64,000 nucleotides of DNA from a virus (IMGVR_UViG_3300042901_002340); one strand, 5' to 3'; positions 1,334 through 59,172 are shown, numbered from the stretch's first letter. Numbers and translations: made by a program. Notes: generated by a model from the letters alone, not told the origin.

Positions 1334-1362
1334 AAGGCTGATATTAATATCAGCCTTTTTTG
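1334..1362. terminator. Bidirectional intrinsic terminator (hairpin aaggctgatattaatatcagcctt flanked by an A-run and a T-run)
   Basis: Perfect 10-bp stem with a T6 tail on the plus strand and an A-run upstream. It overlaps the 3' end of minus-strand gene 1350..2126. Confidence 0.6.
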
Positions 1363-3566: not shown

Positions 3567-3576
3567 ATAAGAAATA

Positions 3577-6087
3577 TTAAGAAATGAACGTTACAGTTCC
3601 TCCCGGTCTTCTCCAGTCTGGTTCTGAATAAACACCAACCGTTGACCAATAACTCATTCCTCTAGTATCATTTGAGGTGGTTGTTTTAAAATCATCTATA
3701 TTTATCCAACCAGCATTACCATCACAATCTATGTAAAACTCTAATACACAATTATGGCTAACTGCGGGAGTTGTATAGGTTAATGTTTGCCATGCGCCGT
3801 TTGCTGCATTTGTTGCACTAACAGCTACAGTTTCTGTTAAATTTCCAGCTAAAGGGTTAAACGCATACATTAATCGTGGTTGATTACCGTTGTATGCAAT
3901 ACCATCCCCGGCAACAGACTTTCTAACAGCAACGGATATAGTACACGTTTGTCCTGATTGGACAGCCACTCTAACAGAATTTGAGAATGTTTTGTTTGTT
4001 AATACTGCGGGAACTATTCTTATGGTTGGAAGACCATTATATGTAATTATATTATCATTTTCTATTGATCCGTTAGATTGGTATTGTCGGTAATCGTTAG
4101 TTACTCCATTATGTTTTAATGATGTTACGCCATTAAATCCATTCACGGAAGTAAATTGTGTTGTTGAAACAAATGCAGCAGGGGCTCCAAAAAATAAACA
4201 ATTTGTTAATGTGGTTCCAACTTGACCCCCTCTCAAACATGCAGTTGTAAAATTACTTTCCACATTATCAGGTCTTCTTCCAAATGTACAATTTGAAAAA
4301 TGTGTATAATCATTAAGCATTGCTGTATAACCAATCGCACTTAAAAGACCTGTTTTGCCTGCCCAAAAGAAACAATTATTGAACCAAAGTTTTCTAAGAA
4401 ACCCACCAATGGTATCGATATTTATAACATTGCCATAAAAATAACAATTTTCATATTTTTCAAAAGCTGTTCTATCGGTACCTGCTGTTACTGATGTATA
4501 TCTAATGGCAACTGCATTATTAAAAAATACATAATTACTTACTGTATTATTAAAACCCGTTGTTGTGTTATATATGGCACCATTACCTCCAGTTGCATAA
4601 AATCGATTCCCTGTAGATCCATTTGCCAAAGCCACACCGCTAAGCCCTGCATTTTGGGAAGATGCTATAACATTGTTGCTACCAAGTGATCCAGCACCTA
4701 TTGCACCAAATGCAGTGAAACCTATTATTAAGTTATTATTGGTGACTGCTCCTAAAAATTCAGCATAATTATAAAAAACATTATTAGATAGTGAATATGT
4801 AGTGGTTATCAGATAGGAAAATATAGTGGTTGTACCAGGTGAAGTGGTTTGCCAAAATGTACATTGTTGGGTGTTAAATGTTCCTGTATATGTAGAAGTT
4901 CCTGAATTATGTACAAAAGTACCCATTTCAAAAAATTCAACATCAAAGAATGTTGTAACCCCATTTAAACCCTGTACAAAACGGGTTTTAAATGTACCAC
5001 TTACACTTCTTATTTTTATAGTTCGTGTCAGATTACACAGATCTGCTTGTATGTAAATAGCTGCATTCCCATCATGTGCAAATGAGGTTGCCCCGTGGGT
5101 TAATGTTGTACCACTGGCATTAGCATTCAATGTTACTCTTTCATGTTGAGTGGTTGTTCTTGTGGTACTTGGTATCACAATTACGTCATTTTGTTGCCAT
5201 CCAGTGGAAACATCAGTGGTCATACTTGTTGCTCCTGCTGTAATATCTGCAGCTAAAAGCGCCCTATGTAGAACGGTTGTTGCATATTTTGTTTCTAATG
5301 TACCAAAATTATAGATCTGAAATTGTAAAGCAGTAGCACAATTTATTTCCAAAACTGCGGTTGATGTAGCAGGAATAGGTGTAGATGCAGTTCCAATTGT
5401 AAATGTTCCACCCCTTCCGATCCAAATATCACCGGCTAATCTTAAAACATAACTTGTGGAAGCTGCCACCCCATAATTAAATATCCCATTACTTCCAATG
5501 TAGCACTGTCCATATTGTGTTGTGGTTGTGCTATCCATTGTAACCGTGGTTGTGGCATTAACACCAGCTGATGTATAACTTCCTCCTGTGATTAATATGT
5601 CGGTTGCAGCAGGCGCCGCCGTTGTGGTTGTTACTAGTGCTCTACTCCAGTTATTAGCAGTAGCATCTCGATAAACACTAACTTGTGCAGCAACTGATGT
5701 TAGTAATCTTATTGAATAGCTATTCCCTGCAACCAATAATTGATTGGCACCAAATTTAAAATAGGCCCAACCAACATAAGGTGTTGCTTGATTACTCGAG
5801 TTGGGTAAATCGCTGACGTTTAGTACCACTGAAGTAATTACTGCTGCGGTGGTGCTATTAAATAACTGAAGTGTGATGGTTCCGGATGGTGTTGCAATTC
5901 TACCCAGTATTTGAATAGAAACTCCCGAAATGGTTATAGCTCCAGGAATAAATGTGGATGAAGCAACAGCAGAAGTTGTTAGAGTTGTACTTGCTGCCCT
6001 ACTATCTAAATAGGATGTAGCATTAACCACACCCCACGTAGATGAACTTGATAAATTTCCGTCCGCTATTGAATGTAGTACAGCCAT
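3577..6087 (-). CDS. Tail fibre or tailspike-like protein with parallel beta-helix (pectate-lyase-like) repeats
   Basis: 836 aa, very rich in Thr/Ser/Asn/Gly/Ala. Repeated N/G-x-x-x-x-N beta-helix-like rungs. It lies immediately downstream of the collagen-like fibre genes. Confidence 0.55.
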   Translation of the reverse strand: MAVLHSIADGNLSSSSTWGVVNATSYLDSRAASTTLTTSAVASSTFIPGAITISGVSIQILGRIATPSGTITLQLFNSTTAAVITSVVLNVSDLPNSSNQATPYVGWAYFKFGANQLLVAGNSYSIRLLTSVAAQVSVYRDATANNWSRALVTTTTAAPAATDILITGGSYTSAGVNATTTVTMDSTTTTQYGQCYIGSNGIFNYGVAASTSYVLRLAGDIWIGRGGTFTIGTASTPIPATSTAVLEINCATALQFQIYNFGTLETKYATTVLHRALLAADITAGATSMTTDVSTGWQQNDVIVIPSTTRTTTQHERVTLNANASGTTLTHGATSFAHDGNAAIYIQADLCNLTRTIKIRSVSGTFKTRFVQGLNGVTTFFDVEFFEMGTFVHNSGTSTYTGTFNTQQCTFWQTTSPGTTTIFSYLITTTYSLSNNVFYNYAEFLGAVTNNNLIIGFTAFGAIGAGSLGSNNVIASSQNAGLSGVALANGSTGNRFYATGGNGAIYNTTTGFNNTVSNYVFFNNAVAIRYTSVTAGTDRTAFEKYENCYFYGNVINIDTIGGFLRKLWFNNCFFWAGKTGLLSAIGYTAMLNDYTHFSNCTFGRRPDNVESNFTTACLRGGQVGTTLTNCLFFGAPAAFVSTTQFTSVNGFNGVTSLKHNGVTNDYRQYQSNGSIENDNIITYNGLPTIRIVPAVLTNKTFSNSVRVAVQSGQTCTISVAVRKSVAGDGIAYNGNQPRLMYAFNPLAGNLTETVAVSATNAANGAWQTLTYTTPAVSHNCVLEFYIDCDGNAGWINIDDFKTTTSNDTRGMSYWSTVGVYSEPDWRRPGGTVTFIS

Positions 6088-6302: not shown

Positions 6303-9300
6303 TGATATCCCTCTAATGTTAATGTTATTCTTGTTTGTGTAGTTACTGAATCTAAATTGAATCTGATTATGTTACCTGCGGTAATCCCGGTTGTCCAGGC
6401 TGTTAATGTTGTGCTCTGTCCTTTTATAGATCCAGCCAAATTTGGTTTTGTTCCCGATGCACCTATTATGGTGTTTGCCACTGTGGGTGGATATGTTGCA
6501 TAAGGAGCGCTCCATATATCAACTGAGGCTGTTCCGCCAACGTCACCTAAGATGGTCCAACCTGTTATTGTCATTGCATACGGGATAACAACATCCGCCT
6601 GTGAACCAGCAGTAAGGACAGATCCTCCACCATCAAACACCACACCAAAAGCTCTTGGTATTGTCGGGGTAGCACCTGTTGCTCCAGTAGCACCGGCCGA
6701 ACCAGTTGCTCCATTTGTCCCCTGTGAACCTGTTGCTCCTGCGGGTCCAGTAGCACCTTGACTTCCAGTAGCACCTTGACTTCCAGTTGGGCCAACCCCA
6801 TTTGTTATTAAAGCCGCAGTAAACCACGTACCTGAACTGGCTCCATTTATATTTTGTGATGTTGGGTTACCTGTAAATGCTGTGACTTCAATATAATCTG
6901 TTGTGCCATTAAAATATGTGATAATGTCAATTTCTTGACCATATCCTGCACCTGTAACAATTTGAGTTTGTTGAATAGCTACTTGAGTACTACCATTCTT
7001 TCTAAATTGAATATTACTTTGATTGTTTGTAACAGAACCTGCATCCCACCATACTGCAAGTTGCAAATTGTAATATCCTGCAATTGTTGGTTGAAACTTA
7101 TTAGGAGTCCACCAGTTTTGAGGGTCAAACTCGTCTACAAATGTTATAACTTGGTCAGAACCGTTTGTTATCGTTTGAGCACTTCCACCTTTAACTGCTT
7201 TCATTACATAGTCACTAGGTGTTAATGAAACACCCGGTCCAGTGGGACCTTGACTTCCAGTTGCTCCAGTAGCTCCAGTGCTTCCGGTGACTCCATTATT
7301 TCCTGTTGCACCTATGCTTCCAGTAGCTCCTTGACTTCCAGTAGCTCCAGTTGCCCCAGTGTTTCCAGTTGCTCCAGTACTTCCAGCAGATCCAGTTGCC
7401 CCAGTGCTTCCGGTTGCCCCTGTTGCACCCACTCCGCTGGGTCCGGTTAAACCAATAGCACCAGTTGCTCCAGTAGGTCCTAACTGTGTATACATTACTT
7501 GTGTGAATGTAGCAATTACACTTGGTGTTGCCGGATGAACCGGTGCAACACCTGCTGGTAAATATTCAATTGAAACCTGTGTACTATCAGCATGCCACCA
7601 AAGTTCTACGGTATCTCCAGGAGCTACTGATGTTCCCACAAAGTTAACAGTTGCAACTGCATATCCAAATTCAGAAGCATTTTTTCTAGCAGGTACGTGA
7701 AAACGTGTAGTGCTGTCTGGATAGTCAGATCCGTTATATCTTAGCCAAATATCGGCATAATGAATGGCATTATCTATATTCTTGAGCTGTATAGAATAAA
7801 TCATGGTATATGTTCCCGGATTAGCAATGACAACAGTACCTGTGCCGCTCAAAGAAAATCCAACCGAACCTTGATTGCCATTAATTCCCACTATTTGTGC
7901 CGTACCTGAAGATATCAAAGGCTGATCGTTGGTATCATAAAAATTTCCATAGTAACCTAAAGCACCCCCAGCTCCGGTTGGTCCTGTTATTCCGACTGGT
8001 CCACTGGTCAATATTGCAACTATGATATCTTGGTTGTCAGAAAAGGAGTATCCTCCAGCTACATAGGAAACTGGAACTGTAACATAAGTATTGGCAAGTC
8101 CTGTAAGAGGGCCATTCACTTTCCAGGATTGATAATTATTAGAGTTTGATAGGTCCTGAATAATTATAGTATCACCTACTTTAAGTAGATTAAGAAATAT
8201 ATCTACGTCGATTCCTAATTGGGTTAGGTGGGAGAATGTTAATTGAGAAGATGCCGTTTGTGTGGCATTATGCCATATAACATAACCATTACCTGGTGGT
8301 GGTGAAGTGGTTGTTGTTTTTGCTTTGTAGGTATAATATGACGTGGATTGACCATTTGAACCGGTTGGTCCCTGAGAACCTGTAGCACCAGTTGCTCCCT
8401 GAGATCCATTTATACCTGCATCACCACTTCTGGAAAAGGAAACGACTAATGAATCTCCTGGATTAATTGTGCCATTGCTTCCTATATAAGTAACCGTTAT
8501 TATCTCTCGTCCCGAAGAATTGCCACCGGTTAGTATTTGATAGTCCGCATAAATATTTGAAATCCCATTAACGCTTATTCTTAAACTACCTTTTATTGGA
8601 TTAGTGCTATCTGCTAAGGTATTATTCCAATTCGTAATATTACCTCCCTGTGCATCGGTATTACTTATTTGTATTGCTGATGTATCAGTCACATTTGTGC
8701 CATTAAATCCAATATAACCCGGGGTAATACCACCGCTGGAATATGAGTAATTTTCCATTGTCATTAGAACAGAATCACCTCCAAAATTACCAGTAATACC
8801 GATTGATCCGGTAGCTCCTGTGGCTCCAGTAATTCCGGTTGCTCCTGTGCTTCCTGTAGATCCATTGGCACCAGTAATTCCAGTGGCTCCAGTGCTTCCA
8901 TTAGCACCAGTGGCTCCAGTGCTTCCTGCAGAACCAGTAGCACCAACTTCACCAGCAATACTAAAAAACCAAGCTCCATAGGAACCTGCTGACCCAACTA
9001 TATAATCAACCTCAATGACTAATGTGGAAGAAGTAAACGATATTACTTGTCCTTCCATGTAGTTATTTGCATTAACAATTGCTCTAATCCGATTTCCTAC
9101 GGGTGCATATGCTGATTGTGTGGCGCTTAAATTTGTTACAAAAGTTTTTGTACCTACTGAAAGTGTATTTGCTGAACTAGAGGATAGTTTATATCCTGCA
9201 CCTTCCGACCCAGTAGCACCAGTGCTTCCATTAGCACCAGTAGCACCAGTGCTCCCATTAGCACCAGTTGCTCCGGTTGCTCCAGTGCTTCCAGTAGGAC

Positions 9301-16702: not shown

Positions 16703-17350
16703 GATGTTTGTAGATTTTTTAGAGATAACGAAAGGTGGGACAAAGATTTCCTAACCTGCGGAGTACCAAAAAAGCACGCAGAAGTATAGGCGTCAACATC
16801 AGGCTCAAAAAACAATGATGCCTCTGTGACGTGTCTGAATTTTTCGTAAAGTTTAATTAAATGTGCTTCTGATTTTGCGGAGAGACAAATTATAGAATTT
16901 GATGTCTCTTTCCATTCTTTGAACTTTGTAGGATGTTCGTGTGCAAAATCTGCGATTGAATGTGTACTCTGTACAATTTGGTAACCTCCGGTGAGGTCGG
17001 ATCTGGTGATTACTACCAGTTTCGTTTCTTGAAATTTGTTAATCTAAGTCATTGTGCTCTAATTTTAGTTTTTTAATAAATCCAGTAATAGCGCAGTGAA
17101 CGGACTGCGTGTTACGTCTTTTAATTTCTACCGTTACCGGATTTATGTTTATTATATATTCAATTTTTTATTTTGTTTCACTTTTTATGCCCTATATTCT
17201 TCTGGATTAATTCCTTCCAGAAATGATAGCTTTGCATCGGTTAGATTGATCGATGAATAAACATCGGTGATCTCCCTCCTAGTTCTCGTGCTTCTATATA
17301 AGCAAACCTCGTAAATCCATTCATCAAATGTCATATTCTATATTTTTTAG

Positions 17351-17442
17351 TGACCAGTACAGGATTCGAACCTGTCATCCGTTCTATCGCCATTTCTTGT
17401 GGGATTCGAACCCCGATAGATAGGACTGCCAACATCCGGTCA
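17351..17442 (-). tRNA. tRNA-like element T1 (92 nt): canonical T-arm plus 7-bp acceptor stem, non-canonical interior
   Basis: Minus-sense 3' end is ACAGG-TTCGAAT-CCTGT-ACTGGTC-A. The 5' end TGACCGG pairs fully with it. The interior holds a second T-loop-like GGG-TTCGAAT-CCC inside a 7-bp hairpin TCTATCG/CGATAGA. Confidence 0.4.
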
Positions 17443-17587
17443 TAAAAATCATCCATATAAACACCCTTGAGGTTGGATCGTTCTGAAATACGTTCAGAAA
17501 CCTTAGTTGATTACCCCGGTTTAGTTTACATCGTCCAATTGACCACACCCTCTGACCCTTAGCGAGGTATGATGAATGAATGATTAG

Positions 17588-17697
17588 TGGTCGGTATAGG
17601 ATTCGAACCCATTTATATCGTGTGCATAGCCTTACACATAAAGTTCGTTTGACTATCCCTTCAATTTACGATTGCCTAGCCAATCAGCCACCTGACC
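17588..17697 (-). tRNA. tRNA-like element T2 (110 nt)
   Basis: 3' end ATGGG-TTCGAAT-CCTAT-ACCGACC-A. 5' end GGTCAGGTGGCTGATTGG... pairs with the 3' strand at 5 of 7 positions. Too long for a standard tRNA. Confidence 0.35.
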
Positions 17698-17943
17698 AAA
17701 AATGATGAATCAAAAAATTTCCGCCTTGGCTAAAAAATATCATCATCTGCTAAGACTTCTTTGAATGGTTCAGGTACCTAAATAGTTCAAGCTATTCTGA
17801 ATCTACATGTCATTAAAGCATTAGCTTTTTTAAGGTTCAAATCCGAACTGTAACTCATTTAATCCTTAACTTGTCGAAGCAAGTTTCTAGGTTTACCCCT
17901 AGCACTCCGTAGATACCACAGAGTAGTTAACATCGCTGATTTG

Positions 17944-18047
17944 TGGTCTGGACAGGATTTGAACCTGTATGAAGTTTACACCATTAAGGGACTTACACCC
18001 ACCTATTAAGGCTTTCTTTAAGCGTCTACCAATTCCGCCACCTGACC
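17944..18047 (-). tRNA. tRNA-like element T3 (104 nt) with a type-II (Leu/Ser/Tyr-like) D-arm
   Basis: 5' end GGTCAGG-TG-GCGGAATTGGTAGACGC is essentially the E. coli tRNA-Leu D-arm. 3' end ACAGG-TTCAAAT-CCTGT-CCAGACC-A. About 53 nt lie between the D-arm and T-arm, too many for a canonical anticodon arm plus variable arm. Confidence 0.45.
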
Positions 18048-18052
18048 AATTA

Positions 18053-18559
18053 TTATTCGCAATTAATTTTTCGAATGTTATAATTTGTAAATAAATTTAC
18101 ATAGTAATTTATTTCGTCTGGTCCCATTTTATATTGAAAAGAGACGTTATCAATCCCGTTAATGTATCTAACATAATTAATTTTTTTACTTTTCAAAATT
18201 ATGAATTCCAATTCTGATAATTTAAAATAAAAAATATTTCCACTTTTTGATTCATCCGTGGATTTTATTTTTAATCTACCCCCATCCTTAAATGAAAAGA
18301 GCAATTGACATTTTTTACTTGGACCACCAATGTTTGATTTAATTACTATAAGGCCATGGCAAGACAATCTATTGCCATCTATTTGGTAATTTGGTTTTAA
18401 TGTAAACCACTTTGTTCTATCAATATTTGAACAAACCACACCACTTGGTCCATAAATTTCGGTCTTATTGGTGCAGTCATCAATGGTAACTCGATCGTTT
18501 TGTGAATATATTGAATTTATCGCTAATATTAAAGCTAATGCAATCAATGTTTTTTTCAT
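18053..18559 (-). CDS. Secreted or lipoprotein-like hypothetical protein (start moved to the internal Met MKKTLIALALILAINS)
   Basis: The ORF-track N-terminal extension (18560..18676) overlaps tRNA-like element T4. The internal Met is followed by a signal-peptide-like segment. Confidence 0.5.
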   Translation of the reverse strand: MKKTLIALALILAINSIYSQNDRVTIDDCTNKTEIYGPSGVVCSNIDRTKWFTLKPNYQIDGNRLSCHGLIVIKSNIGGPSKKCQLLFSFKDGGRLKIKSTDESKSGNIFYFKLSELEFIILKSKKINYVRYINGIDNVSFQYKMGPDEINYYVNLFTNYNIRKINCE

Positions 18560-18578
18560 TATTTTTATATTCTTATTA

Positions 18579-18736
18579 GTAGTCAGAGTGGGATTCGAAC
18601 CCACGATGGTAATTGGAGCGTTGATTCTTCCACTGTCGCTAACAGGGGTTCCAAATCCTGTGCGTCCTTTCTCCAATTTAGCGTCTGCCTCGTTATAACA
18701 GGATTTCTCGCATTATAAGCCTTCCGCCACCTGACT
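18579..18736 (-). tRNA. tRNA-like element T4 (158 nt) with a ~32-nt insertion in the D-loop region
   Basis: 5' end AGTCAGG-TG-GCGGAA[GGCTTATAATGCGAGAAATCCTGTTATAACGAG]GCAGACGC. 3' end GTGGG-TTCGAAT-CCCAC-TCTGACT-A. The acceptor stem is 7 of 7 with one G-U pair. Confidence 0.35.
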
Positions 18737-18810
18737 CCTAGCTTCTAACAGATTAGGAATGTCTGTCGCTTTACACAGCTTAGCTATTTTTGGGTTTCCC
18801 CTACTCTCCG

Positions 18811-19176
18811 CTAATTGAGTTTTTCTATATGAGCAATAGATCCAATGACTCTACCATAATGTGATGGTGTTTTCATTGTGCCTATTATCTCACCTTTTTG
18901 ATTTATGTAAGCCGCCTCCCTTATCCAACCTATCTCTTTTGGGATTGGTAATGGCTTCCATGGTAATCTTTCTCCCTTGAATCTCCTTTTTAATTCTGAA
19001 TTTAAAAGCCTCTGAGCCTCACAGTTACAAAAATTAGCTCCTGTTAAAATCTCTCTGAACCAAAGTATATTCGATAGGTGCTGATGATCTATTTCCGAGA
19101 ATTTTTTAGTTTCTCCTAGAGCTGTTTTCCATAAATATTCTTTCATCGTTATGTTTTTTGTGATCCCACCGTGCAT
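18811..19176 (-). CDS. Hypothetical protein
   Basis: 121-aa ORF. Confidence 0.45.
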   Translation of the reverse strand: MHGGITKNITMKEYLWKTALGETKKFSEIDHQHLSNILWFREILTGANFCNCEAQRLLNSELKRRFKGERLPWKPLPIPKEIGWIREAAYINQKGEIIGTMKTPSHYGRVIGSIAHIEKLN

Positions 19177-19273
19177 CGAACACGTTACATCAGTTTTAGA
19201 GGCTGACCCAATTGCCGAATTGGATTAAGTTGAAGGACCATTTAAAACCAGAACCTAAATCCTGGTTTTATTT

Positions 19274-30429: not shown

Positions 30430-30942
30430 TTAATATTTTCTTCTGGCTTCTCTCCCTATTGTTGTAAGTAAAGCACCAAAAGCAGAATCGAAGTCCGGAT
30501 ATTGTGGCATTTCGTATCTTGTACATAGGATATCAACGTTGCCCTTTCTGTAGAATCCATCAGGACAGCAAACTATAACTTTAGCGTTACTACCTGCACA
30601 TAGGCCTAATTCTAATAGAGTTATTGGACTTTTGGATTCTGGTAGGATGTTAAAGAATATCACATCCGAATCCTCGATGTTGTCAAGTTCCCAGTTTACT
30701 TGGTAGTTGAATACTGAGTTGGATTCTTCCTGTTCCCATGTGTTGTCCCATGAATCCCTTCTTGGGTTGTAAACATCTACGTGATGTGTGAAACCAATCT
30801 CATTATCGAAGGATGATAATCTTCTGTAAGTTTCCTCTTGCCAATCCTCAGAATTTCCCATCTCAATGGTTCCAGCTAGGAACACCGATATTGGGTCTGG
30901 TTGCTGTGTGAAATCGTTGTCAGGTTTTATTAAAGTTACCAT
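30430..30942 (-). CDS. Nucleoside 2-deoxyribosyltransferase-like (NDT/Rcl superfamily) protein
   Basis: VFLAGTIEMG...W near the N-terminus and ...DSDVIFFNILPESKSPITLLELGLCAGSNAKVIV resemble the NDT-like fold. Confidence 0.45.
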   Translation of the reverse strand: MVTLIKPDNDFTQQPDPISVFLAGTIEMGNSEDWQEETYRRLSSFDNEIGFTHHVDVYNPRRDSWDNTWEQEESNSVFNYQVNWELDNIEDSDVIFFNILPESKSPITLLELGLCAGSNAKVIVCCPDGFYRKGNVDILCTRYEMPQYPDFDSAFGALLTTIGREARRKY

Positions 30943-35421: not shown

Positions 35422-37083
35422 TTATTTTAATCTCTCTCTAATTTCTGTTAGCGTGACCTGATTGTGGAATTTACCATCCTCATAGATGGTAAATAATAAA
35501 CCACTGTCTTCCTGCTCCTTAGTGCATTCGGTATTTACCTCCAACTGATCCTTACCATCGTACTTGATCTCGTAAGGTAAGGCATCTGGCCTGTTATTGA
35601 ATACCTGACAGAAACCCTTTAATGATTTTTTAGTACCATTATCTGTTATTGGGTCTTTGTAGATATTATATTCGGTCGTGATGTAATCAGTTTGACCGTC
35701 AGGATCAACACCATTAAATTCCTTAGTAGAGAACCAAGCTCCTTTAGCTGCATATCCAGCAGAGTCTCTTGTTAGCATGACATATGTGTAAGAACCAACC
35801 CCTACAACGACGTTAGTAGATGCAAATCCTTTGGCTTCTGACCTTGTGTAGATAGCAATTTGTCTTTCCAAGTTGATTGAATCACCGTAGATGGCTCCAA
35901 TGTGTGGGTCCAATCTTTTATATCCTTGTTCATTGATAGTTCCACCAAAGATATCCCAAAGTAATTCAATAACACCTTTACCTTCTGGAGTTCCAGTGTG
36001 TAATGTTGATTCGCTACCGCAAATAATATCGACTGGGTCTCCAGAATCAGGACGAATTACAAGTTTACCATCTCTTGCAAGGATTTCCTTTTTAAGTCTT
36101 GGTAGAATGTGCGTAATAACTTTCCATAAATCCATTGTATCAGAAACTGCAGAAAGAATGCCTTTAGGGAATTTTTTCAACCAATCTCGAAGATTAAGGT
36201 ATTCTGCAATTGCTAGGTAGTCCGGAGCATCAACCGATCCCTCGCAAGGGGAATCGAAAGAATAGTAGTTTAGAATCTCATGGTTTAATTTTCCAGATTT
36301 TAATTTTTTCTCGTAGAAGAAAATACCTGTACAAGTCACGCTGTGCTCTGAAGCATTAACGCTATAAACAGGAACCTCATTCTCATCAAAATCGTAGTAG
36401 TATCTTGATGCCGGGATAACATTTAATGTGTCGCTACCAGAATTACTCATGGCGTGTCCTAAACCGATTGCGATTGAGGTGAAAGGATTACCACCTCTAC
36501 TATGAAAATCGTGACACATGAAATCAGCTAACCAAAGATTCTCCGGATCTGTTTTGGTAACCCATTCCACAGCATTCTTTTTGAATCTGTGTGCAATGGT
36601 AGCAGCAGTAGGTAATTGCCAAGCCAATTTAGAAACCAATGTCTCTAAGTAAAGTCCAAGCCATGCATAACCATCAACAGTATTAATACCCGTCATGTGA
36701 GGGATATTTGGTTTGGTGAAGGTTCCTTCTGGGATAGCTTTGATTTTAACTGGAAGGTATCCAAGTTTATGAAGCTCTGTGAAATGCCCAGCATCATAGT
36801 CCATCATAAGATACTTAGCCATATCTCTTCCAAATTTCTCTGCCACCTCCACATGTTTATTGAAGAAAAGCTCCTGAAAGTTACTATGAATGTATCTCCA
36901 AACTAATTGTTGACCTGCTGACATGATGCCGTCTATCGATGGATGCATGTACTTGATGCTTCTTGGAATCCATGTCCAATATTCGGTTGCTGTGTTTTCA
37001 GCTAACATTGCCTTGTGCCCAACTTTATACCCGTCGGATTCGTAAAGGGGGTTGATTTTAAACGTTTCGTTTAGTTTTTCCAT
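35422..37083 (-). CDS. nadV: Nicotinamide phosphoribosyltransferase (NAMPT / NadV-like; could be a Namat-type enzyme)
   Basis: Recalled NAMPT blocks aligned by eye: DGYKVGHKAM (cf. DSYKVTHYKQ), KIKAIPEGT, CHDFHSRGG (cf. LHDFGYRG), LVIRPDSGDPVDII (cf. LIIRPDSGNPLDTV), GAIYGDSIN. Confidence 0.8.
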   Translation of the reverse strand: MEKLNETFKINPLYESDGYKVGHKAMLAENTATEYWTWIPRSIKYMHPSIDGIMSAGQQLVWRYIHSNFQELFFNKHVEVAEKFGRDMAKYLMMDYDAGHFTELHKLGYLPVKIKAIPEGTFTKPNIPHMTGINTVDGYAWLGLYLETLVSKLAWQLPTAATIAHRFKKNAVEWVTKTDPENLWLADFMCHDFHSRGGNPFTSIAIGLGHAMSNSGSDTLNVIPASRYYYDFDENEVPVYSVNASEHSVTCTGIFFYEKKLKSGKLNHEILNYYSFDSPCEGSVDAPDYLAIAEYLNLRDWLKKFPKGILSAVSDTMDLWKVITHILPRLKKEILARDGKLVIRPDSGDPVDIICGSESTLHTGTPEGKGVIELLWDIFGGTINEQGYKRLDPHIGAIYGDSINLERQIAIYTRSEAKGFASTNVVVGVGSYTYVMLTRDSAGYAAKGAWFSTKEFNGVDPDGQTDYITTEYNIYKDPITDNGTKKSLKGFCQVFNNRPDALPYEIKYDGKDQLEVNTECTKEQEDSGLLFTIYEDGKFHNQVTLTEIRERLK

Positions 37084-37959: not shown

Positions 37960-38451
37960 TTATTGGGTTTTATAGATTAATTCGTCTTTTTTGATGTATG
38001 GAATATGTATGTACTCATCCACTAAAGCTTTCTGTTTTTCTAAACATGATTCTAACATTTTAGATTTCTCTATTATAGCGGATTCTGGAACTTTTCTTTC
38101 TCTATTTTTATTTCTTTCCAAGCAAACTTTTAAAGGTGCTTCAACATAAACTAGTGTTATGTGATAACCTTTGTCCTTAAGCATTCCAATAATTCTCAAA
38201 GAGTAAGAGTTATTAACTCCACCAGAGTCCATGCACATAGAAATTCCTTTATCCGATAGTTCACACATTTGTCTTTCCGCTTCTTTAACACTCCATTGGT
38301 GAAGGGGTTCTGGATCCTTTGGGTCATAATCCTTATGTGATTGTTTGATAAGGTCAGCAGAAACTATAGAATAGTCTCCGGCATAGTCTCTATTGACTAT
38401 GGATGTTTTTCCTGATCCAGGTAAGCCGATAAAAAGTATTGCTTTTTTCAT
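37960..38451 (-). CDS. P-loop kinase (AAA_33 / polynucleotide-kinase or zeta-toxin-like fold)
   Basis: Walker A LFIGLPGSGKTSIV at the N-terminus. Size fits a small nucleotide or nucleoside kinase. Confidence 0.5.
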   Translation of the reverse strand: MKKAILFIGLPGSGKTSIVNRDYAGDYSIVSADLIKQSHKDYDPKDPEPLHQWSVKEAERQMCELSDKGISMCMDSGGVNNSYSLRIIGMLKDKGYHITLVYVEAPLKVCLERNKNRERKVPESAIIEKSKMLESCLEKQKALVDEYIHIPYIKKDELIYKTQ

Positions 38452-42141: not shown

Positions 42142-42471
42142 CTATTCTTTATCTATGTTATTAATTATATCACTAATTCCGTCACTCTCTGACATGCCTT
42201 CTAATTTCTTGGCTAATTCTACGAATGCTGTATATCCAATATCCTGCATCTCCATGATGAGATCAACAACTCTAACGTCGACGTTTAATTCCTCTGCACA
42301 TTTTATTGCAGTTTTCTCCTCGAGTTTAACCCCAGATTCAACAAGATCCATTGCCATGTCGAATCCCTTTTCTGTTATGAGTGTTCCTCCTTCCAGAAAA
42401 CCACCCTCTCTTAGTTTGTTACACCAGTAAACAAACAGGAGTGCCTGTTCTTTAAGCTCCTCGAAGTTCAT
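42142..42471 (-). CDS. Hypothetical small acidic protein
   Basis: 109-aa ORF. Confidence 0.45.
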   Translation of the reverse strand: MNFEELKEQALLFVYWCNKLREGGFLEGGTLITEKGFDMAMDLVESGVKLEEKTAIKCAEELNVDVRVVDLIMEMQDIGYTAFVELAKKLEGMSESDGISDIINNIDKE

Positions 42472-42931
42472 TTTTCACAAGTGTTAATGCTTGACCTAAT
42501 AAATTAAGACCTAACCAATATGACGGATCCTCAACTCCTTGTGCATCCTCGTCCATACCAATTCCCCACACATTATCAAGAGGTGAAGCTTCAACAAAAA
42601 ATGCATTCCCTGTTGATAGCATTTCTTCCTTTAAGCCTGGATTCTGTGAAAATTTGGCTAGATTTCCTTCATATACAATAGCTAAGCAATTCCTTTCCCA
42701 AATTGATTTGTCAAAGTTCTTAACCATCCTTCCGAATTTCTTTTGTTCCCTTGGATTTTTTTCCTGCATGATTAATTCTGCAGTTTCTTCATCGCCAAAT
42801 AACAATGCCTTCTGGTGCATCATGTATTGCTCGCATGAATTATATTCTATTTTACCAATGGTCATATTTGCTTTATGCCATTGCGAGTAAATTCCATTCC
42901 AGAAAAACACGTATTTATTTGTTGTTTTCAT
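42452..42931 (-). CDS. NADAR domain protein (YbiA-like, DUF1768; ADP-ribose / NAD-associated N-glycosidase family)
   Basis: FFW....S.W, EQ.MM..KA, KFSQNP.L...LL.TG...VEAS..D..WGIG and LG..L..VR match the NADAR family pattern as I recall it. Confidence 0.65.
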   Translation of the reverse strand: MKTTNKYVFFWNGIYSQWHKANMTIGKIEYNSCEQYMMHQKALLFGDEETAELIMQEKNPREQKKFGRMVKNFDKSIWERNCLAIVYEGNLAKFSQNPGLKEEMLSTGNAFFVEASPLDNVWGIGMDEDAQGVEDPSYWLGLNLLGQALTLVKNELRGA

Positions 42932-46122: not shown

Positions 46123-46704
46123 TTATTTTTTTAGATGTACTATTGTTACCTTACAATCTTTTAGCTCCTCCTTTATTAGGGATTTAACCGTTTTCTCATC
46201 ACCTCCGGCCAATCCACACCCGATAAGGGGGAGTCCGACGTGTCTACCTTTGAATTGGTGGTTTATTTTTCTCATACAGAGTCTAAGTGCATCATAATCA
46301 AGGGGCCTAGCAGTTCCGCCCTCATGATTTAATCCAAACCCATATTGGGTGTAGCTATTAACAACTGCAAGATCAAATTTGCCATTTTCTCCGGTGTATG
46401 TATTAACCTTCCAATCTATCTGACCAAGCTTGTTATAGTCACCCCTATGCTGTTGACCTTCCATTGGAAATTTGTCACACCCAAATGCCCCAGCCATTTG
46501 TGGTGCTATTCCAGCTCCCATGGTACAGAAACAGTTACATCCATGGGTGATCACTTGGAATTTTCCCTGTTGTGCCATGGTTATTAGATTGCCAACTACC
46601 TCCCGATATGCTGGGTGGATTGGCTGACTAATAAGGGATTCTGGCAAACATGACCTGTCACACTCGCCGTTGCAATACATACAACCTCCTATTAGTGTTC
46701 TCAT
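46123..46704 (-). CDS. Macro domain protein (ADP-ribose binding or hydrolysing) with an N-terminal Cys cluster
   Basis: QVITHGCNCFCTMGAGIAPQ matches the macro VNaaN..l.gGgGva / Macro_2 pattern. LPLIGCGLAGGD is the distal macro motif. N-terminus has CMYCNGECDRSC. Confidence 0.55.
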   Translation of the reverse strand: MRTLIGGCMYCNGECDRSCLPESLISQPIHPAYREVVGNLITMAQQGKFQVITHGCNCFCTMGAGIAPQMAGAFGCDKFPMEGQQHRGDYNKLGQIDWKVNTYTGENGKFDLAVVNSYTQYGFGLNHEGGTARPLDYDALRLCMRKINHQFKGRHVGLPLIGCGLAGGDEKTVKSLIKEELKDCKVTIVHLKK

Positions 46705-47197: not shown

Positions 47198-48103
47198 TTA
47201 GATAACTTTTAATTGTTTAAGTTTGTGCATCTCATTATCGTTTCTTAATGAGAATTCAGGATCGGACATATCAACATAACTGTTGGTTGTGTAGATACCA
47301 TCGAAGTGTTCATTTAGTGGCTTTAAACCAGCTGAAAAGATTCCATGGGTTACAACAAGGAAAATCTTACCTGTTGCATTTTTTTCTCTGAGTGCTTTAG
47401 CAATCTCGATAAATGTGCGTCCTCCGTCGCAAATATCATCTAAGATAAAGAAGTCTTTATCTAGATCCTCAGGTTTTAAAGGAACATCAGTGTGTGTAAT
47501 CTTGCCAGTCCCAATGTCTCTGTGTTTTGAAGCTATAACTATGTCCTGCTTATATCCAATGGACTCGGCAACATCGTAAACTTTCTTAAGAGCTCCAGCA
47601 TCCGGAGATATTAATCTCATTTTGGAATAATCAGTGCTTCCAGAATTGAAATAGTCACGCAATACAAATGTTAGTAAACCCTGACCATATTGAGTTACCT
47701 TTTTGAATTTTTTGATACATGCCTCAGTCACATCCGAATGCGGGTCAAGTATTGTTACTCTTTTGAATTTCTGTGCATTGATAATAGGAGCAAGAACCTC
47801 TTTGATGTAATTAACACTTCCTTCCTCGAATTTTCTGTCCGATCTCGCACCTAATAGGTATGATATCTCAAGTGAAGTTGCTTTAACTCCAAGCTCTTTA
47901 AGAGCTTTATTTGCACAAATAACCAATTCAAGATCCAAGAATGAAGTTATTCTGGATTTTATTAAAACTGGTTCCATTTTCTCAAACATATCATGTTTGA
48001 GAACTTCACCCTCCAATATGGTGATGGCTTGCTGGCCATCCGGAAATTTGGAGACCTTGAATTTGATACCGTAGCTTAACGGTTCGGAAAGATTTATTAC
48101 CAT
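47198..48103 (-). CDS. Ribose-phosphate pyrophosphokinase (PRPP synthetase)-like protein; could be an ADPR-pyrophosphate synthetase (Adps) type
   Basis: RVTILDPHSDVTEAC matches the PRPP-synthetase DLHA..IQGFF region. FFILDDICDGGRTF matches the PRPP-binding loop VDDMIDTGGT. 301 aa. Confidence 0.65.
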   Translation of the reverse strand: MVINLSEPLSYGIKFKVSKFPDGQQAITILEGEVLKHDMFEKMEPVLIKSRITSFLDLELVICANKALKELGVKATSLEISYLLGARSDRKFEEGSVNYIKEVLAPIINAQKFKRVTILDPHSDVTEACIKKFKKVTQYGQGLLTFVLRDYFNSGSTDYSKMRLISPDAGALKKVYDVAESIGYKQDIVIASKHRDIGTGKITHTDVPLKPEDLDKDFFILDDICDGGRTFIEIAKALREKNATGKIFLVVTHGIFSAGLKPLNEHFDGIYTTNSYVDMSDPEFSLRNDNEMHKLKQLKVI

Positions 48104-50209: not shown

Positions 50210-50471
50210 CTTTTTGGTATTTATCTAAAAATTTTTGTATTATCGAAGATCCGCTCGATGACTTTCCAACAATCATGTTTAGCTCACCATCCTGTGGGCC
50301 AACCATATTATTCAAAGCCTCTGCCATTCTTTCCTTGAGTGACATGTTAGCTAATCTCTCCTCAGCTGCTTTATTTTCAAGATCAATGAACTCCTTCCAC
50401 TCCGGAGAGGACACGATTTCATTTATGCTATTGTACTTCAACTTCTTCAGATTTAGGTGATTTAATTTCAA
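50202..50471 (-). CDS. Hypothetical small protein
   Basis: 89-aa ORF. Confidence 0.4.
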   Translation of the reverse strand: MKLNHLNLKKLKYNSINEIVSSPEWKEFIDLENKAAEERLANMSLKERMAEALNNMVGPQDGELNMIVGKSSSGSSIIQKFLDKYQKDV

Positions 50472-51282
50472 ACTCCGGAATCATGACATCCATAAATTCT
50501 CTCTCCTGTGTGAATATAGGTGTCGGAATCATTTGCCATTTCAGTCTTTCAACCTGGCCATCTCTACCTTCAATCATTGTTGGTACCTTAGCAATAATGC
50601 CACCTCTTTTTTCTCTGAAGTGATAGTCATTCCAGTTGATTCCTTTCTGAAAAATCATCTCTTGCATGTCCTTCTCCTTCTTGCCATTTAATTCACTTTG
50701 TGAATATAGGCTTTGCGCAACGGATTGGATTGAGTTTCTAGTTCCATCTTGCTGTCTGAAGATGAAATAGTTCTCAACCTCACTTTTTTGTGGAATCTGA
50801 AACACCCTAGCATCGAACTCTGCTAGTTTAAATTTTTCGATCTCTGCTTGACTCATTGTTTGATCCAATATCGAAGATGCTAAACTTGCCATTGGATCAA
50901 CATTGTTCTTAGCATATCTGATCATTCTCAGCTGGTTGAACTTTGCAGTTGCCATAGAAGCTGCAACCGATGCCATTTTTTGTAGATTCCCATCGAACCA
51001 CATTTGAGTGTCTCTCTCTTCGAAATCAGTAATAAGTATACTGATCTCATCTGATTGAACATAGCCAAATTTTGCTCCCTGTATATTCTTACAAAGGTAG
51101 GCGGTGGTCTCGTTCATGTCTGCAATTAAACCTGCATCAAATGGAGATACCAAACCTTTTGTGTAGGTGTGGAAAGCTTTCCCGTCGATTCTGATTATTG
51201 TGTACGTTCTCCGTGGAACATAGTATCTAAAACGGTCTTCGTAGAATTCTTTCATACGATCGCCAAGGCTAAAGATTTTCAT
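50428..51282 (-). CDS. Thg1-like protein (tRNA-His guanylyltransferase family 3'-5' nucleotidyltransferase)
   Basis: TIIRIDGKAFHTYTKG...FGYVQSDEISILI and ..KMASVAASMATAKF match the Thg1/TLP catalytic core (cf. VVVRLDGRNFHRF...AYGQSDEYSFVF, ..KFMTHVASQFASSY, as recalled). Confidence 0.75.
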   Translation of the reverse strand: MKIFSLGDRMKEFYEDRFRYYVPRRTYTIIRIDGKAFHTYTKGLVSPFDAGLIADMNETTAYLCKNIQGAKFGYVQSDEISILITDFEERDTQMWFDGNLQKMASVAASMATAKFNQLRMIRYAKNNVDPMASLASSILDQTMSQAEIEKFKLAEFDARVFQIPQKSEVENYFIFRQQDGTRNSIQSVAQSLYSQSELNGKKEKDMQEMIFQKGINWNDYHFREKRGGIIAKVPTMIEGRDGQVERLKWQMIPTPIFTQEREFMDVMIPEFEIKSPKSEEVEVQ

Positions 51283-51284
51283 AG

Positions 51285-52169
51285 TTAATTTTTTAATTCG
51301 TATAATCCCTCCCTAACTAGAACGCTGTGCAGATCTCTAATTCTAAAGTAGTAACATGCATTTTTTGTTGATCCTCCATAGTAATCATGATCGTAAGATT
51401 CATCAACATCAACACACTCAGCCCATATTTTTTTGTATAGCATGAATGATATATGTGGACAAACCTCGTTGATTATATCGTCGAAGGCACTAAAGTTGGA
51501 TACTGGTGCTTCCCCAGAAACCGTTCCTCCGCCTCCCCAGCAATCTTTCCAATCTCCACCTAGACACCAGGATTGTGAGGTAACTTTTCCATCCCGATCT
51601 GGGCAAGAATGCTTGGATGCAATCTCATCCCTAAAAACCTCCCATGCTAATTTCATTACAGTTTTATGTGTTTGTATCGAAACTTTGACATCCTTCATTT
51701 CTGATAGACTTTCTGATATTTTAGCAAGATCTGGTGTTTCTATTGTTGAATTTGCGATTGATATCGATGAGTTCTTATCCCTTCTTCCTCTATCGTTGTG
51801 CATGCACGCATCAATATCGGGTGTCCAGTAATTGATTACAACCTCAGTATTCTTTCTGATTTGTAACTTATTCAAAAGATCTATAATACCGCCATTCGTT
51901 GAAACGAAAAGATCCAATATAACCTCATCATAATGCGTGGAGCTATTTTGATATTCTCTGATCATCTCAACATCAGGTTTGGTCAGTGAAGCGGATGGAT
52001 ACCTTCTTCTGATCTCGTATCTCTCCCTCAACTTATCAAATTCTATATGAAGAACCCCACCTTTGCTCCTCATGCTTCCTGCTGGCCCCTGTTTATCTTT
52101 AGCCCATGTGGTCTTTCCTGATCCCGGTAAACCAACTGTTATATGTAATTTTTGATTATTCATTCTCAC
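51285..52169 (-). CDS. P-loop kinase (polynucleotide-kinase-like) next to the Thg1-like gene
   Basis: Walker A ITVGLPGSGKTTWAKD at the N-terminus. The downstream region has no clear HAD phosphatase motif. Confidence 0.45.
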   Translation of the reverse strand: MRMNNQKLHITVGLPGSGKTTWAKDKQGPAGSMRSKGGVLHIEFDKLRERYEIRRRYPSASLTKPDVEMIREYQNSSTHYDEVILDLFVSTNGGIIDLLNKLQIRKNTEVVINYWTPDIDACMHNDRGRRDKNSSISIANSTIETPDLAKISESLSEMKDVKVSIQTHKTVMKLAWEVFRDEIASKHSCPDRDGKVTSQSWCLGGDWKDCWGGGGTVSGEAPVSNFSAFDDIINEVCPHISFMLYKKIWAECVDVDESYDHDYYGGSTKNACYYFRIRDLHSVLVREGLYELKN

Positions 52170-58271: not shown

Positions 58272-58340
58272 GTGGAGAGAGAAGGATTCGAACCTCCAAT
58301 CTTATTGCTTTACCTACACGTGACTTTAAGCATATCTCCC
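58272..58340 (-). tRNA. tRNA-like element T5 (69 nt)
   Basis: 5' end GGGGAGA pairs 7 of 7 (one G-U) with 3' TCTCTCC-A. T-arm GGAGG-TTCGAAT-CCTTC. The interior GCTT-AAAGTCACGTGTAGGTA-AAGC does not give a canonical D-arm or anticodon arm. Confidence 0.4.
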
Positions 58341-58351
58341 CATTTATATTT

Positions 58352-58458
58352 GTGGCCAGTGCAGGAATCGAACCTGCTGTTAATGCCAAAGCTCCACGAC
58401 ATCAACCATTGCTTTATAGGAACTTTCTAATGTGCAGGTTCCATCCCTGCATTCTGGC
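58352..58458 (-). tRNA. tRNA-like element T6 (107 nt)
   Basis: 5' end GGCCAGA; 3' end GCAGG-TTCGATT-CCTGC-ACTGGCC-A. The D-arm-like hairpin is GCAGGGATGGAACCTGC. Confidence 0.4.
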
Positions 58459-58543
58459 CGTTAAAAACAGAGGTCATCCAGTATACGGGGTGCGCCTCAC
58501 CTTATGCATCTAGGGCCCGTGCGTTTGTGTTTTACTTGTTTTG

Positions 58544-58620
58544 TGATTGGAACAGGATTCGAACCCATTTTTACCAGTACTCTCAATAGGCGTCGCGCCA
58601 CAATCAAGCTATTTCCAATC
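58544..58620 (-). tRNA. tRNA-like element T7 (77 nt)
   Basis: Perfect 7-bp terminal stem GATTGGA/TCCAATC, discriminator A, T-arm ATGGG-TTCGAAT-CCTGT. The interior has a GGCG-CGA-CGCC hairpin and no obvious anticodon stem. Confidence 0.45.
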
Positions 58621-58806
58621 GTTTAAAGAGCCTAGCCTGACCTGCCAGACAGTACATGTCGAGATTAATTTGGCGCCTCGTTATGTAGTAGACCCTTATG
58701 TTTTAACCCTGGACTTGGACTCTGCCTCGAACGATTTTATTAGTGATCCGCGGAACCACCTTATTTCGTGTCCAGTTATCACTGCAGCTTACAGTGACGT
58801 GGCTAG

Positions 58807-58933
58807 TGGGGGAAACAGGAATCGAACCTGTGACACTTTGAATCAGCTAAACCTCGCCTTTGTGTGAAGACGTCATAGATGCTATCTATGATGTAAGTTA
58901 GAGATGGATACCATACCGTTGGTCTATTCCCCC
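58807..58933 (-). tRNA. tRNA-like element T8 (127 nt)
   Basis: Perfect 7-bp terminal stem GGGGGAA/TTCCCCC-A, T-arm ACAGG-TTCGATT-CCTGT. The interior has a perfect 8-bp hairpin TCATAGAT-AGC-ATCTATGA. Confidence 0.4.
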
Positions 58934-59172
58934 TGTTGGAAACCAGTTAAAGCCGACCGATTTCCCTGTTATACCGACTTTTCCACTAGGTTAGGAAACT
59001 GTCTTCTGCAAAACCACCCTTACTTTTCCTTAAGGCTAGGAAAACTTTTAAACTACCCGGTCCTATTAACCTTGTTTTTAAATCTAAAACAATGTTCTCG
59101 TCCGATGGAGATGCACAATAAAAACTGCTTTATCTTCGTATTCTTTATCTTATTTCCCTTATTAATTACATT

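Follow-up and report, generated by a model that had tools for sequence, protein, structure and literature searches.

Phage T4 RNA C (species 1 RNA, rnaC) lies in an array of transfer RNA (tRNA) genes beside the GIY-YIG homing endonuclease segB, where it is one of two small stable RNAs, and its role is unassigned (PMC3014915). It is 139 nucleotides (nt) long and carries a perfect T-arm (CCGGG-TTCGAAT-CCCGG) on an imperfect acceptor-like stem with 5/7 pairs, and its interior consists of long hairpins, not of D and anticodon arms. The Lak megaphages, which are huge phages of Bacteroidota, encode oversized tRNA-type genes that bacterial finders miss and that carry inserts in the anticodon loop, described as "enigmatic introns", one of which is itself tRNA-like (PMC6784885). 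Here we report a cluster of tRNA-like elements at 17351-18736, on the minus strand, of a 64,000-nt (64-kb) stretch of DNA from the virus IMGVR_UViG_3300042901_002340; this whole stretch, which is part of a much larger genome, is called the window. Phage T4 RNA C is the nearest architectural match, as the window elements follow the same plan (about 100-160 nt, a T-arm with an acceptor-like closure, a non-cloverleaf interior, a tRNA or tRNA-like array); the match is one of architecture only, with no similarity beyond the T-loop, and RNA C has no Leu-type D-arm, is a single gene and belongs to a phage with an enterobacterial host. The Lak tRNAs are the nearest phylogenetic and phenomenological match, but there a clean cloverleaf results from the exons alone, the insert lies at 37/38 and alleles lacking the intron are known (PMC6784885), whereas the elements studied here offer no anticodon loop that could be rebuilt, have inserts in the D-loop too, show dozens of unrelated interiors and are in some cases shorter than a tRNA. 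On balance, we lean towards reading them as phage genes for tRNA-derived, non-decoding tRNA-like RNAs, which would be processed as mimics of the "top half" of tRNA-Leu; most of them most likely descend from a type-II tRNA-Leu.

The initial annotation of this DNA had described four minus-strand elements with textbook T-arms and an A discriminator in this interval, and the cluster is real: all four elements are present with these features (the T-stem of T3 has one G-U pair), and a fifth, T0, which had been missed, lies just upstream. The elements are numbered 5' to 3' on the minus strand, and "element T4" means the locus at 17442..17351, which is distinct from phage T4. Their coordinates, with two substructures of T1, are as follows.

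T0: 19161..19239, minus strand, a 79-nt non-canonical tRNA-like element.
T1: 18736..18580, minus strand, a 157-nt tRNA-like RNA.
T1 D-loop expansion: 18687..18720, minus strand, a hairpin with a GAAA tetraloop between the would-be G18 and G19.
T1 extended anticodon-position arm: 18611..18678, minus strand, helices 5-8 with 3 compensatory pairs.
T2: 18047..17944, minus strand, a 104-nt tRNA-like RNA.
T3: 17697..17588, minus strand, a 110-nt tRNA-like element.
Element T4: 17442..17351, minus strand, a 92-nt element, or 207 nt if its 5' strand is GGTCAGA at 17557-17551.

The T-loop motif GGTTCRAWTCC has 10 matches in the window against 0.13 expected (about 75-fold above chance), a number reached by 0 of 100 shuffles, and all 10 fall within two clusters, this one and another at 58273-58933. 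T1-T4, which are 92-157 nt long, all have a 5-base-pair (bp) T-stem with the loop TTCGAAT or TTCAAAT stacked on a terminal stem, and thus possess the acceptor stem, T-arm with T-loop and discriminator of a canonical tRNA. Their acceptor stems had been called perfect, which holds for T1 and element T4 (7/7 pairs each) but not for T2 (6/7) or T3 (5/7). The shared type-II 5' region that had been recognised earlier is present as GGTCAGG-TG-GCGGAATTGGTAGACGC, and the GCGGAATTGGTAGACGC region is identical to the D-arm of bacterial tRNA-Leu, with E. coli as the reference.

The interiors are not those of tRNAs. ARAGORN with default settings found 0 tRNA and 0 transfer-messenger RNA (tmRNA) genes in the whole window. 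At the Rfam gathering threshold, only T2 was reported in the cluster (35.1 bits, with a 32-nt local skip replacing the anticodon arm), together with two elements of the second cluster that were aligned with a similar skip; at E <= 10, the region 17000-19200 otherwise gave only a weak and meaningless tRNA-Sec alignment of element T4 (16.4 bits, E = 7.7). None of T1-T4 combines a 5-bp anticodon stem with a 7-nt loop, U33 and a purine at 37 within about 70-95 nt. Ordinary tRNAs with misplaced boundaries are thus ruled out by the ARAGORN result and by an Rfam match obtained through a local skip only, and the covariance models did not fold the elements as tRNAs of 72-90 nt, in agreement with the initial annotation. 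Instead, T1, T2 and T3 have a common plan of acceptor stem, U8, G9, Leu-type D-arm, 1 nt and a helix at the position of the anticodon stem, followed by a variable region of 4-6 nt (in T2, a small extra hairpin) and the T-arm. In place of a 7-nt loop, this helix encloses 52 nt in T1, 26 nt in T2 and 46 nt in T3, with further hairpins. The residues beside it are GG.. (T1), AA.. (T2) and AA.. (T3), so that there is no U33 and no anticodon loop can be rebuilt by excising a segment.

The acceptor stem of T1, AGTCAGG/TCTGACT, pairs in 7/7 positions including one G-U, and is followed by a Leu-type D-stem, the D-loop expansion hairpin, an 8-bp anticodon-position helix, a 52-nt branched insert, a 6-nt variable region, the T-arm GTGGG-TTCGAAT-CCCAC and the discriminator A. 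The 32-nt D-loop insertion pointed out in the initial annotation is present in this element, which starts at 18736; the expansion hairpin (helices 3 and 4, with 2 compensatory pairs) recurs as the same module in the family member L287, where its removal leaves the canonical Leu D-loop AAAAG|GTAGACGC, and thus it sits between G18 and G19 (L001, L002 and similar labels denote viral contig stretches that were compared with the window). The extended arm is built from the helix AATTGGAG/CTCCAATT, a CGC/GCG helix further in, and a hairpin of 5 bp whose 10-nt loop contains the conserved sequence UUGGAA. When T1 was aligned with its orthologues in L001 (7356-7516) and L002 (7499-7660), RNAalifold gave 48 pairs with 96.5% of cells paired and 8 pairs changed on both sides (acceptor 3, D-loop hairpin 2, long arm 1, inner hairpin 2), which was reached in 0 of 500 shuffles, and slid controls gave 0-1. 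These 8 compensatory pairs among orthologues show T1 to be a selected structured RNA. The alignment of T0 with L001, L002, L003 and L081 contains 22 pairs, 9 of them with compensatory changes, and the substitution patterns indicate that T1 and T0 are clearly under selection.

The elements of the window appear to belong to the tRNA-like RNAs of phage tRNA clusters, and to a family for which we found neither an Rfam entry nor a description in the literature searched. We defined its scaffold as 5' GGTCAGG-TG-GCGGAAT(T)GGTAGACGC, a variable interior and ACAGG-TTCGAAT-CCTGT-CCTGAC(Y)-A, and searched with the pattern GGTCAGGTGGC-N60-90-GGTTCRAATCC (long) and the same scaffold with N35-59 (short). 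The scaffold GGTCAGGTGGCGGAATTGGTAGACGC ... ACAGGTTCGAATCCTGTCCTGACYA was found in 56 viral contig stretches with a long gap and in 44 with a short gap. In long-gap members, there is hardly any variation in the D-arm, the T-stem (ACAGG/CCTGT) or the 3' strand, and the middle is unrelated from member to member, giving 56 mutually dissimilar interiors among the family loci in hand; no strong shared interior motif emerged, the best 6-mer being AATGAG, in 8 of 56 against 1.7 expected. Family elements are 67-282 nt long, with interiors from about 20 to more than 230 nt. The longest, at 8124-8405 (plus strand) of L002, occupies the position of element T4 and has a perfect 7-bp closure GATCAGA/TCTGATC, a Leu D-arm and a 231-nt interior without an Rfam match. 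Some members covary among themselves: between L038 and L054, the long arm changes from ATTGAG/CTCAAT to ATTCAG/CTGAAT. Several phages carry 4-8 family elements (L043 at least 6), and in L026 and L029 these lie inside ordinary arrays of 23 tRNAs. Among prokaryotes (185,579 species, one genome each), the long pattern had 28 matches with 1 true member, located on a 516-bp contig binned with a Flavobacterium metagenome-assembled genome. We found no conserved protein neighbour of the family members, and their neighbours reflect groups of related phages. Within the window, T2 is a full member, T1 a member with a D-loop insertion and a different T-stem, and T3 a partial one, and element T4 matches in its 3' half only.

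These data bear on the alternative that the elements are true tRNA genes in which the anticodon loop, the D-loop or both harbour a short intron, and that a phage or host activity splices them into decoding tRNAs; tRNA-like inserts might conceivably be excised by RNase P and RNase Z and the halves then joined by an RNA ligase. The Lak megaphages supply a precedent, in which the Tyr(GTA) gene of their Table S6 is interrupted at 37/38 by 93 nt that include an inner T-arm, and among deposited phages the window matches best an uncultured one of 642 kb (LR756502.1, with 64% identity across a 637-amino-acid protein). Also in its favour, the inserts lie at the sites of archaeal and eukaryal introns, removal of the D-loop hairpin restores a canonical Leu D-loop, and there is no canonical tRNA anywhere in the window. 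In its intron mode, ARAGORN at the default threshold does call T3 as Ser(GGA) with a 15-nt intron and many mismatches, and 58352-58459 as Thr(GGT) with a 20-nt intron, but the call for T1 changed between runs from Gly(CCC) with a 77-nt intron to Ala(AGC) with a 68-nt intron, and that for T2 from Ile(AAT) to Leu(AAG), so isotype and intron position shift with context. Manual reconstruction of a cloverleaf from exons alone fails for T1-T3, as the flanks of the inserts yield no loop with U33 and R37, and the inserts extend the anticodon-position helix coaxially, without the 3-nt bulges of a bulge-helix-bulge. A single-deletion scan scored by ARAGORN did not place the elements above shuffled interiors, and the Lak Tyr gene, used as a positive control, was not above its controls either. 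No group I intron (RF00028) or other ribozyme was found in the inserts at E <= 5-10, and inserts of 26-106 nt are too short for a group I core. Splicing endonuclease, RNA ligase and Ro60 genes were not seen among the approximately 55 window open reading frames (ORFs) scanned, which for splicing is a weak argument in a genome much larger than the window. The family argues in the same direction. Paralogues with the common Leu scaffold share no anticodon arm, and members of 67-76 nt have interiors of about 20 nt, too short to hold one; among 31 distinct short members (67-91 nt), ARAGORN accepts 11, none as Leu. A constant scaffold around a continuum of interior lengths, including some shorter than that of a tRNA, is hard to reconcile with introns in decoding tRNAs and suits tRNA-like RNAs with an unconstrained lower half, and unrelated interiors in about 100 viral contigs together with the near-restriction to viruses argue against introns as well. 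We therefore consider splicing into decoders rather unlikely, though conceivable for individual elements. Searches with group I introns, ribozymes, tmRNA, Y RNA and further known families at relaxed thresholds gave no match in the region, the window or L001-L003. Among the readings offered by the initial annotation, that of tRNA genes with short intervening sequences is thus disfavoured by the missing Y-U-NNN-R loop, the contradictory isotypes and the scaffold members that are too short, while that of tRNA-derived structured small RNAs fits best, given the compensatory changes in T1, the absence of a recoverable anticodon loop and the viral family with unrelated interiors.

The other elements are less uniform. 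T2 has the acceptor GGTCAGG/CCAGACC (6/7, mismatched at A5.A68), a D-arm exactly like that of bacterial tRNA-Leu (TGGCGGAATTGGTAGACGC), the helix TTAAAG/CCTTAA around 26 nt at the anticodon-stem position, a small hairpin resembling a variable arm, the T-arm ACAGG-TTCAAAT-CCTGT and the discriminator A. A copy in L202 (1132-1235) is 97% identical with an identical interior, in an unrelated context; its acceptor is perfect, and thus the A5.A68 of the window is a derived point change, and its 1:72 pair differs by a compensatory change from A-T to G-C. In L076, a copy of 74% identity still forms the anticodon-position helix, with altered pairs (TTATGGA/TCCATAA), and by these copies T2 is conserved elsewhere. 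T3 has the acceptor GGTCAGG/ACCGACC (5/7 in register), a D-arm GCT/GGC with G17G18 in its loop, a perfect 5-bp helix ATCGT/ACGAT around a 46-nt insert (17667..17622), a 4-nt variable region, the T-arm ATGGG-TTCGAAT-CCTAT and the discriminator A. Element T4 has an ambiguous 5' end, 17442 or 17557, and its terminal stem can be drawn as TGACCGG/CTGGTCA (7/7) or as GACCGGA/ACTGGTC (6/7, leaving a discriminator A). It has no D-arm, and the TCTATCG/CGATAGA hairpin of the initial annotation, found at 17420-17414 and 17389-17383, encloses a degenerate second T-arm-like sequence GGGGTTCGAATCCCAC; some Lak inserts also contain a T-arm of their own. In L002 and L003, conservation of this element is confined to the T-arm and acceptor strand at its 3' end. 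T3 and element T4 may be degenerating or mosaic copies.

An alternative for the whole cluster would be that the elements are decaying tRNA pseudogenes or recombination mosaics, which arose by homing-endonuclease cuts at T-loop DNA and gene conversion and have no RNA function of their own. SegB of phage T4 cuts phage tRNA genes at RAWTSGAAC and thereby drives tRNA-array rearrangement (PMC13096335). Because this site is T-loop DNA, homing cuts are a plausible DNA-level engine for the swapping of cassettes, and perhaps homing-endonuclease activity is also the source of stray T-arm copies such as that in element T4. GIY-YIG ORFs are at hand, one inside the L001 cluster (8535-9209, plus strand, a weak SegE match) and one in the window (1350-2126, minus strand). 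Close relatives differ within shared flanks by whole cassettes and by deletions between scaffold halves: L001 has another element (Rfam, 48 bits) in the place of T2, L081 has an 83-nt element in the place of T1 and eight elements in total, L002 lacks T2 and the 167-amino-acid ORF that adjoins it in the window, and L003 has a single element. The second T-arm of element T4, the acceptor mismatches of T2 and T3, the lack of orthologues of T3 and element T4, and folding energies no better than those of shuffles would also suit decay. However, decay does not explain the compensatory substitutions in T1, T0 and sub-families such as L038/L054, the identical T2 interior and compensatory 1:72 change in the otherwise unrelated L202, or the persistence of the scaffold in about 100 viral contigs with acceptor pairing intact even around the 231-nt insert of L002. 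It accounts for the movement of cassettes, not for their retention, and we judge it improbable for the cluster as a whole.

Returning to tRNA-Leu top-half mimics, the elements have a constant top half, composed of a 7-bp acceptor stem, the T-arm, the A discriminator and usually a Leu D-arm forming the elbow, and a variable lower half, in which an often structured insert replaces the decoding end and, in one subtype, the D-loop is expanded too. RNase P, RNase Z and the CCA-adding enzyme identify their substrates by the acceptor/T-arm minihelix and the elbow, so that the elements should be excised from a polycistronic RNA. We propose that the cluster would be transcribed as one RNA together with small ORFs and a 245-nt spacer, that RNase P would cleave each element at +1 and an RNase Z-type activity behind the discriminator, and that the products would be stable tRNA mimics of 80-160 nt, which could receive CCA and possibly leucine. 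E. coli leucyl-tRNA synthetase (LeuRS) uses A73 and tertiary elements and ignores the anticodon, and thus A73 with the Leu D-arm would permit leucylation. The same cuts would free the small mRNAs and the spacer RNA lying between the elements. The top half would thus serve as a processing and stability module and the lower half as the functional or fast-evolving part.

Several points weigh against this proposal. Processing, CCA addition and charging of the elements are steps that we infer, and elaborate conserved inserts would be superfluous in a signal for processing alone. Folding energies are unremarkable, with z-scores of -0.5 to -1.7 for the elements and a mean interior z of -0.54 across the family. 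The acceptor mismatches of T2 and T3 count here as well, and exact patterns found no orthologues of T3 or of the interior of element T4 in the material searched. The family pattern fixes the 5' 11-mer and the T-loop, so that finding them conserved is in part circular. A search within the window for antisense targets of the inserts gave only chance-level 10-13-mers. Finally, as the exons of the oversized Lak tRNA genes form clean cloverleaves, splicing exists or is plausible in such phages.

A more specific and only tentative possibility is that the family consists of virus-specific, fast-diversifying tRNA-Leu top-half mimics of jumbo- and megaphages, whose constant module recruits tRNA enzymes and whose hypervariable lower half is the business end. 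The partners of the constant module would be RNase P, RNase Z and the CCA-adding enzyme, and LeuRS and EF-Tu might join them. The lower half could serve as a decoy or sponge against defence nucleases or toxins that target tRNAs, for example those that cut type-II variable or anticodon regions or modify the CCA end. Alternatively, the elements could serve as natural "tRNA scaffolds", presenting a variety of functional RNA modules and acting as punctuation in polycistronic RNAs. Cassettes would be exchanged via homing-endonuclease cuts at T-loop DNA. In polycistronic tRNA-guide arrays, tRNAs serve as punctuation that frees the flanking RNAs. Engineered tRNA scaffolds place foreign RNA in the anticodon arm for excision and stabilisation by tRNA enzymes (PMC3753655). 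Both are laboratory constructs, unlike the phage elements. We know of no natural phage counterpart of tRNA scaffolds.

YrlA RNA has a permuted topology, in which both ends of the RNA lie in the Ro-binding stem and the acceptor-like stem is capped. It is a tRNA-mimicking module bound with Ro60/Rsr, and resembles the window elements in being non-decoding, in mimicking the acceptor/T/D elbow and in being handled by tRNA enzymes (PMC4201824); it occurs in some jumbo phages (PMC7824862). Unlike YrlA, the elements are not permuted and have no Rfam match to Y RNA, and no Ro60/TROVE domain was found among the scanned ORFs of the window, which covers 64 kb of a larger genome.

The initial annotation had also compared the elements with the tRNA-like domain of tmRNA. 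The architectural analogy is fair: in both, the ends close an acceptor stem and T-arm, and a long helix with a large insert leaves the position of the anticodon stem. tmRNA differs in having the G3:U70 pair of Ala identity, a tag frame, pseudoknots and a reduced D region, none of which the elements show. Their position 3:70 is U-A or U.G, they contain no tag ORF, and the tmRNA mode of ARAGORN finds none in the window but does so in L007 and L021; membership of the tmRNA class thus fails, with no Rfam tmRNA match either. This comparison opens a further alternative, namely that the elements are aminoacylated, ribosome-directed tmRNA-like or suppressor-like mimics that act in rescue, recoding or frameshifting. 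The mirrored architecture from acceptor and D region through long helix and insert to T-arm and acceptor, the tmRNA genes of the relatives L007 and L021, and the compatibility of A73 and the Leu D-arm with LeuRS speak for it, as does the CUA triplet in a conserved loop of T0. However, arms of 8-16 bp are incompatible with decoding geometry, and the window shows no sign of TAG recoding: TAG ends 10 of 73 long minus-strand ORFs, and reading TAG as sense merges ORFs no more than TGA does. With the failed tmRNA criteria added, we regard ribosome-directed mimics as very unlikely. A side observation touches this subject: L083 carries at 3064-3801 (plus strand) a CCA-adding/poly(A)-polymerase-type gene (PolyA_pol, 1.6e-19) beside a homologue of the 273-amino-acid gene that lies just upstream of the cluster in the window, at the position of the tRNA-like cluster; the enzyme would suit charged mimics, and its gene has no homologue in the window.

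T0 itself has an 8-bp acceptor, a 4-bp T stem with the non-standard T-loop TTCGATG, a hairpin of 5-6 bp where a D-arm would lie and a stem of 4-5 bp with the 9-nt loop C(C/U)UCUAAA(A/C) (in the window, CCUCUAAAA), which holds the CUA anticodon-like triplet. ARAGORN does not call it, and the copy in L002 scores 23.6 bits with the Rfam tRNA model. T0 might be an amber-suppressor-like tRNA of an unusual kind, in a window that shows no TAG recoding. A long variable arm is typical of allo-tRNAs. These and the 8/4 tRNAs (Mukai et al., PMC5389517) share with T0 an 8-bp acceptor, a 4-bp T stem and the unusual 12-bp branch split. T0 differs in having no long variable arm and a 9-nt loop.

Phage tRNA arrays are now viewed as counter-defence loci, yet to our knowledge no role has been assigned in about 50 years to phage T4 RNA C and D, the tRNA-like RNAs found with them. 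The locus described here would tie these RNAs and the tRNA "introns" of megaphages to one large, essentially phage-confined family, and its molecules, with defined predicted ends, covarying orthologues and swappable cassettes, offer a handle on the decoy, sponge, scaffold or punctuation roles of tRNA mimicry. For annotation, it means that standard tRNA finders overlook or mislabel such genes; the calls made by ARAGORN contain spurious isotypes such as Pro(AGG).

Small ORFs and one spacer lie between the elements.

ORF of 111 amino acids: 18811..19146, minus strand, starting at ATG 19146, 14 nt after the T0 discriminator; conserved in L002 and L081, no Pfam domain.
ORF of 167 amino acids: 18053..18556, minus strand, starting 24 nt after T1 and ending 6 nt before T2; no Pfam match.
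Spacer sp23: 17699..17943, minus strand, 245 nt, ORF-free, abutting T2 and T3 directly.
ORF of 49 amino acids: 17185..17334, minus strand, 16 nt after element T4; homologues at L002 8417-8566 and L003 7266-7415, no Pfam domain.

The 167-amino-acid ORF has a signal-peptide-like N-terminus (MKKTLIALALILAINSIYSQ) and is absent from L002, L003 and L081. The 49-amino-acid ORF is the small downstream ORF that had been suspected before, and its homologues show it to be conserved. An ORF-free stretch had been placed downstream too; the one that matters is sp23, inside the cluster. Its identity is 97% in L001, 92% in L002, 92% in L081 and 85% in L057, it is bracketed by two tRNA-like elements every time, and RNAalifold gives 69 pairs with 6 compensatory ones in several hairpins; Rfam has no match to it. 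We consider sp23 a candidate new noncoding RNA that would be released by tRNA-type processing. On the opposite strand inside sp23, a single GGTTCAAATCC at 17834-17844 (plus) has no proper T-stem and thus is probably chance or a relic. A second spacer of about 157 nt (ATGAGTTGATTACTCAG...CATAATTGCA) is found between tRNA-like elements in L081 (7046-7205, plus) and L057 (11362-11518, plus) and is absent from the window. The noncoding hairpin motif GAAATTAAAAGAC(G/A)TAACACGCAG.C.GTTC.CTGCG occurs at about 17080-17135 (minus) in the window, 3' of the 49-amino-acid ORF, and at about 920-965 (plus) in the otherwise unrelated L202, 5' of its T2-type element. A scan for sigma-70 promoters and terminators gave chance level only, and the motif TAnnTTTG showed no strand enrichment, with 40 matches per strand.

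A second noncoding cluster at 58273-59181 of the window, also on the minus strand, has four more tRNA-like ends.

58933..58807, minus strand: 127-nt element with 71 nt in place of the anticodon arm.
58620..58544, minus strand: 77-nt element.
58459..58353, minus strand: 107-nt element.
58341..58273, minus strand: 69-nt element with one hairpin between acceptor stem and T-arm.

A TAnnTTTG motif stands ahead of this cluster at 59181, and the sequence upstream of the 58544 element matches L057 11057-11115 over part of its length, with 93% identity. Elsewhere, at least 120 viral contig stretches (L140-L259) have two T-loop motifs 36-66 nt apart, too close for two tRNAs; some are nested T-arms in Leu-scaffold elements (L144, L150, L162, L173), and others are truncated mini elements after a normal tRNA.

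Among the genes of the window are those for collagen-repeat tail fibres, a Gp23-type capsid protein, NAD salvage and a Thg1-like enzyme. It has no DNA similarity to cultured phages, and its syntenic relatives include the 434-kb contig of L002. The style of its signal peptides and the TAnnTTTG motifs suggest a Bacteroidota host. The Thg1-like 3'-5' polymerase gene (50428..51282, minus; Pfam Thg1, 1.4e-25) adjoins a 294-amino-acid ORF (51285..52169), whose match to the P-loop family AAA_33 is below threshold (23.2 bits against a cut-off of 27), and a confident AAA_33/zeta-toxin-like kinase lies at 37960..38451; these three together could form a module for the repair of tRNA 5' ends. The salvage genes, all on the minus strand, encode NAPRTase (35422..37083), a PRPP-synthetase-like protein (47198..48103), NADAR (42452..42931), nucleoside 2-deoxyribosyltransferase (30430..30942) and a weak Macro domain (46123..46704), and by analogy this set for NAD and nucleotide salvage is reminiscent of phage counter-measures to NAD-depleting defences.

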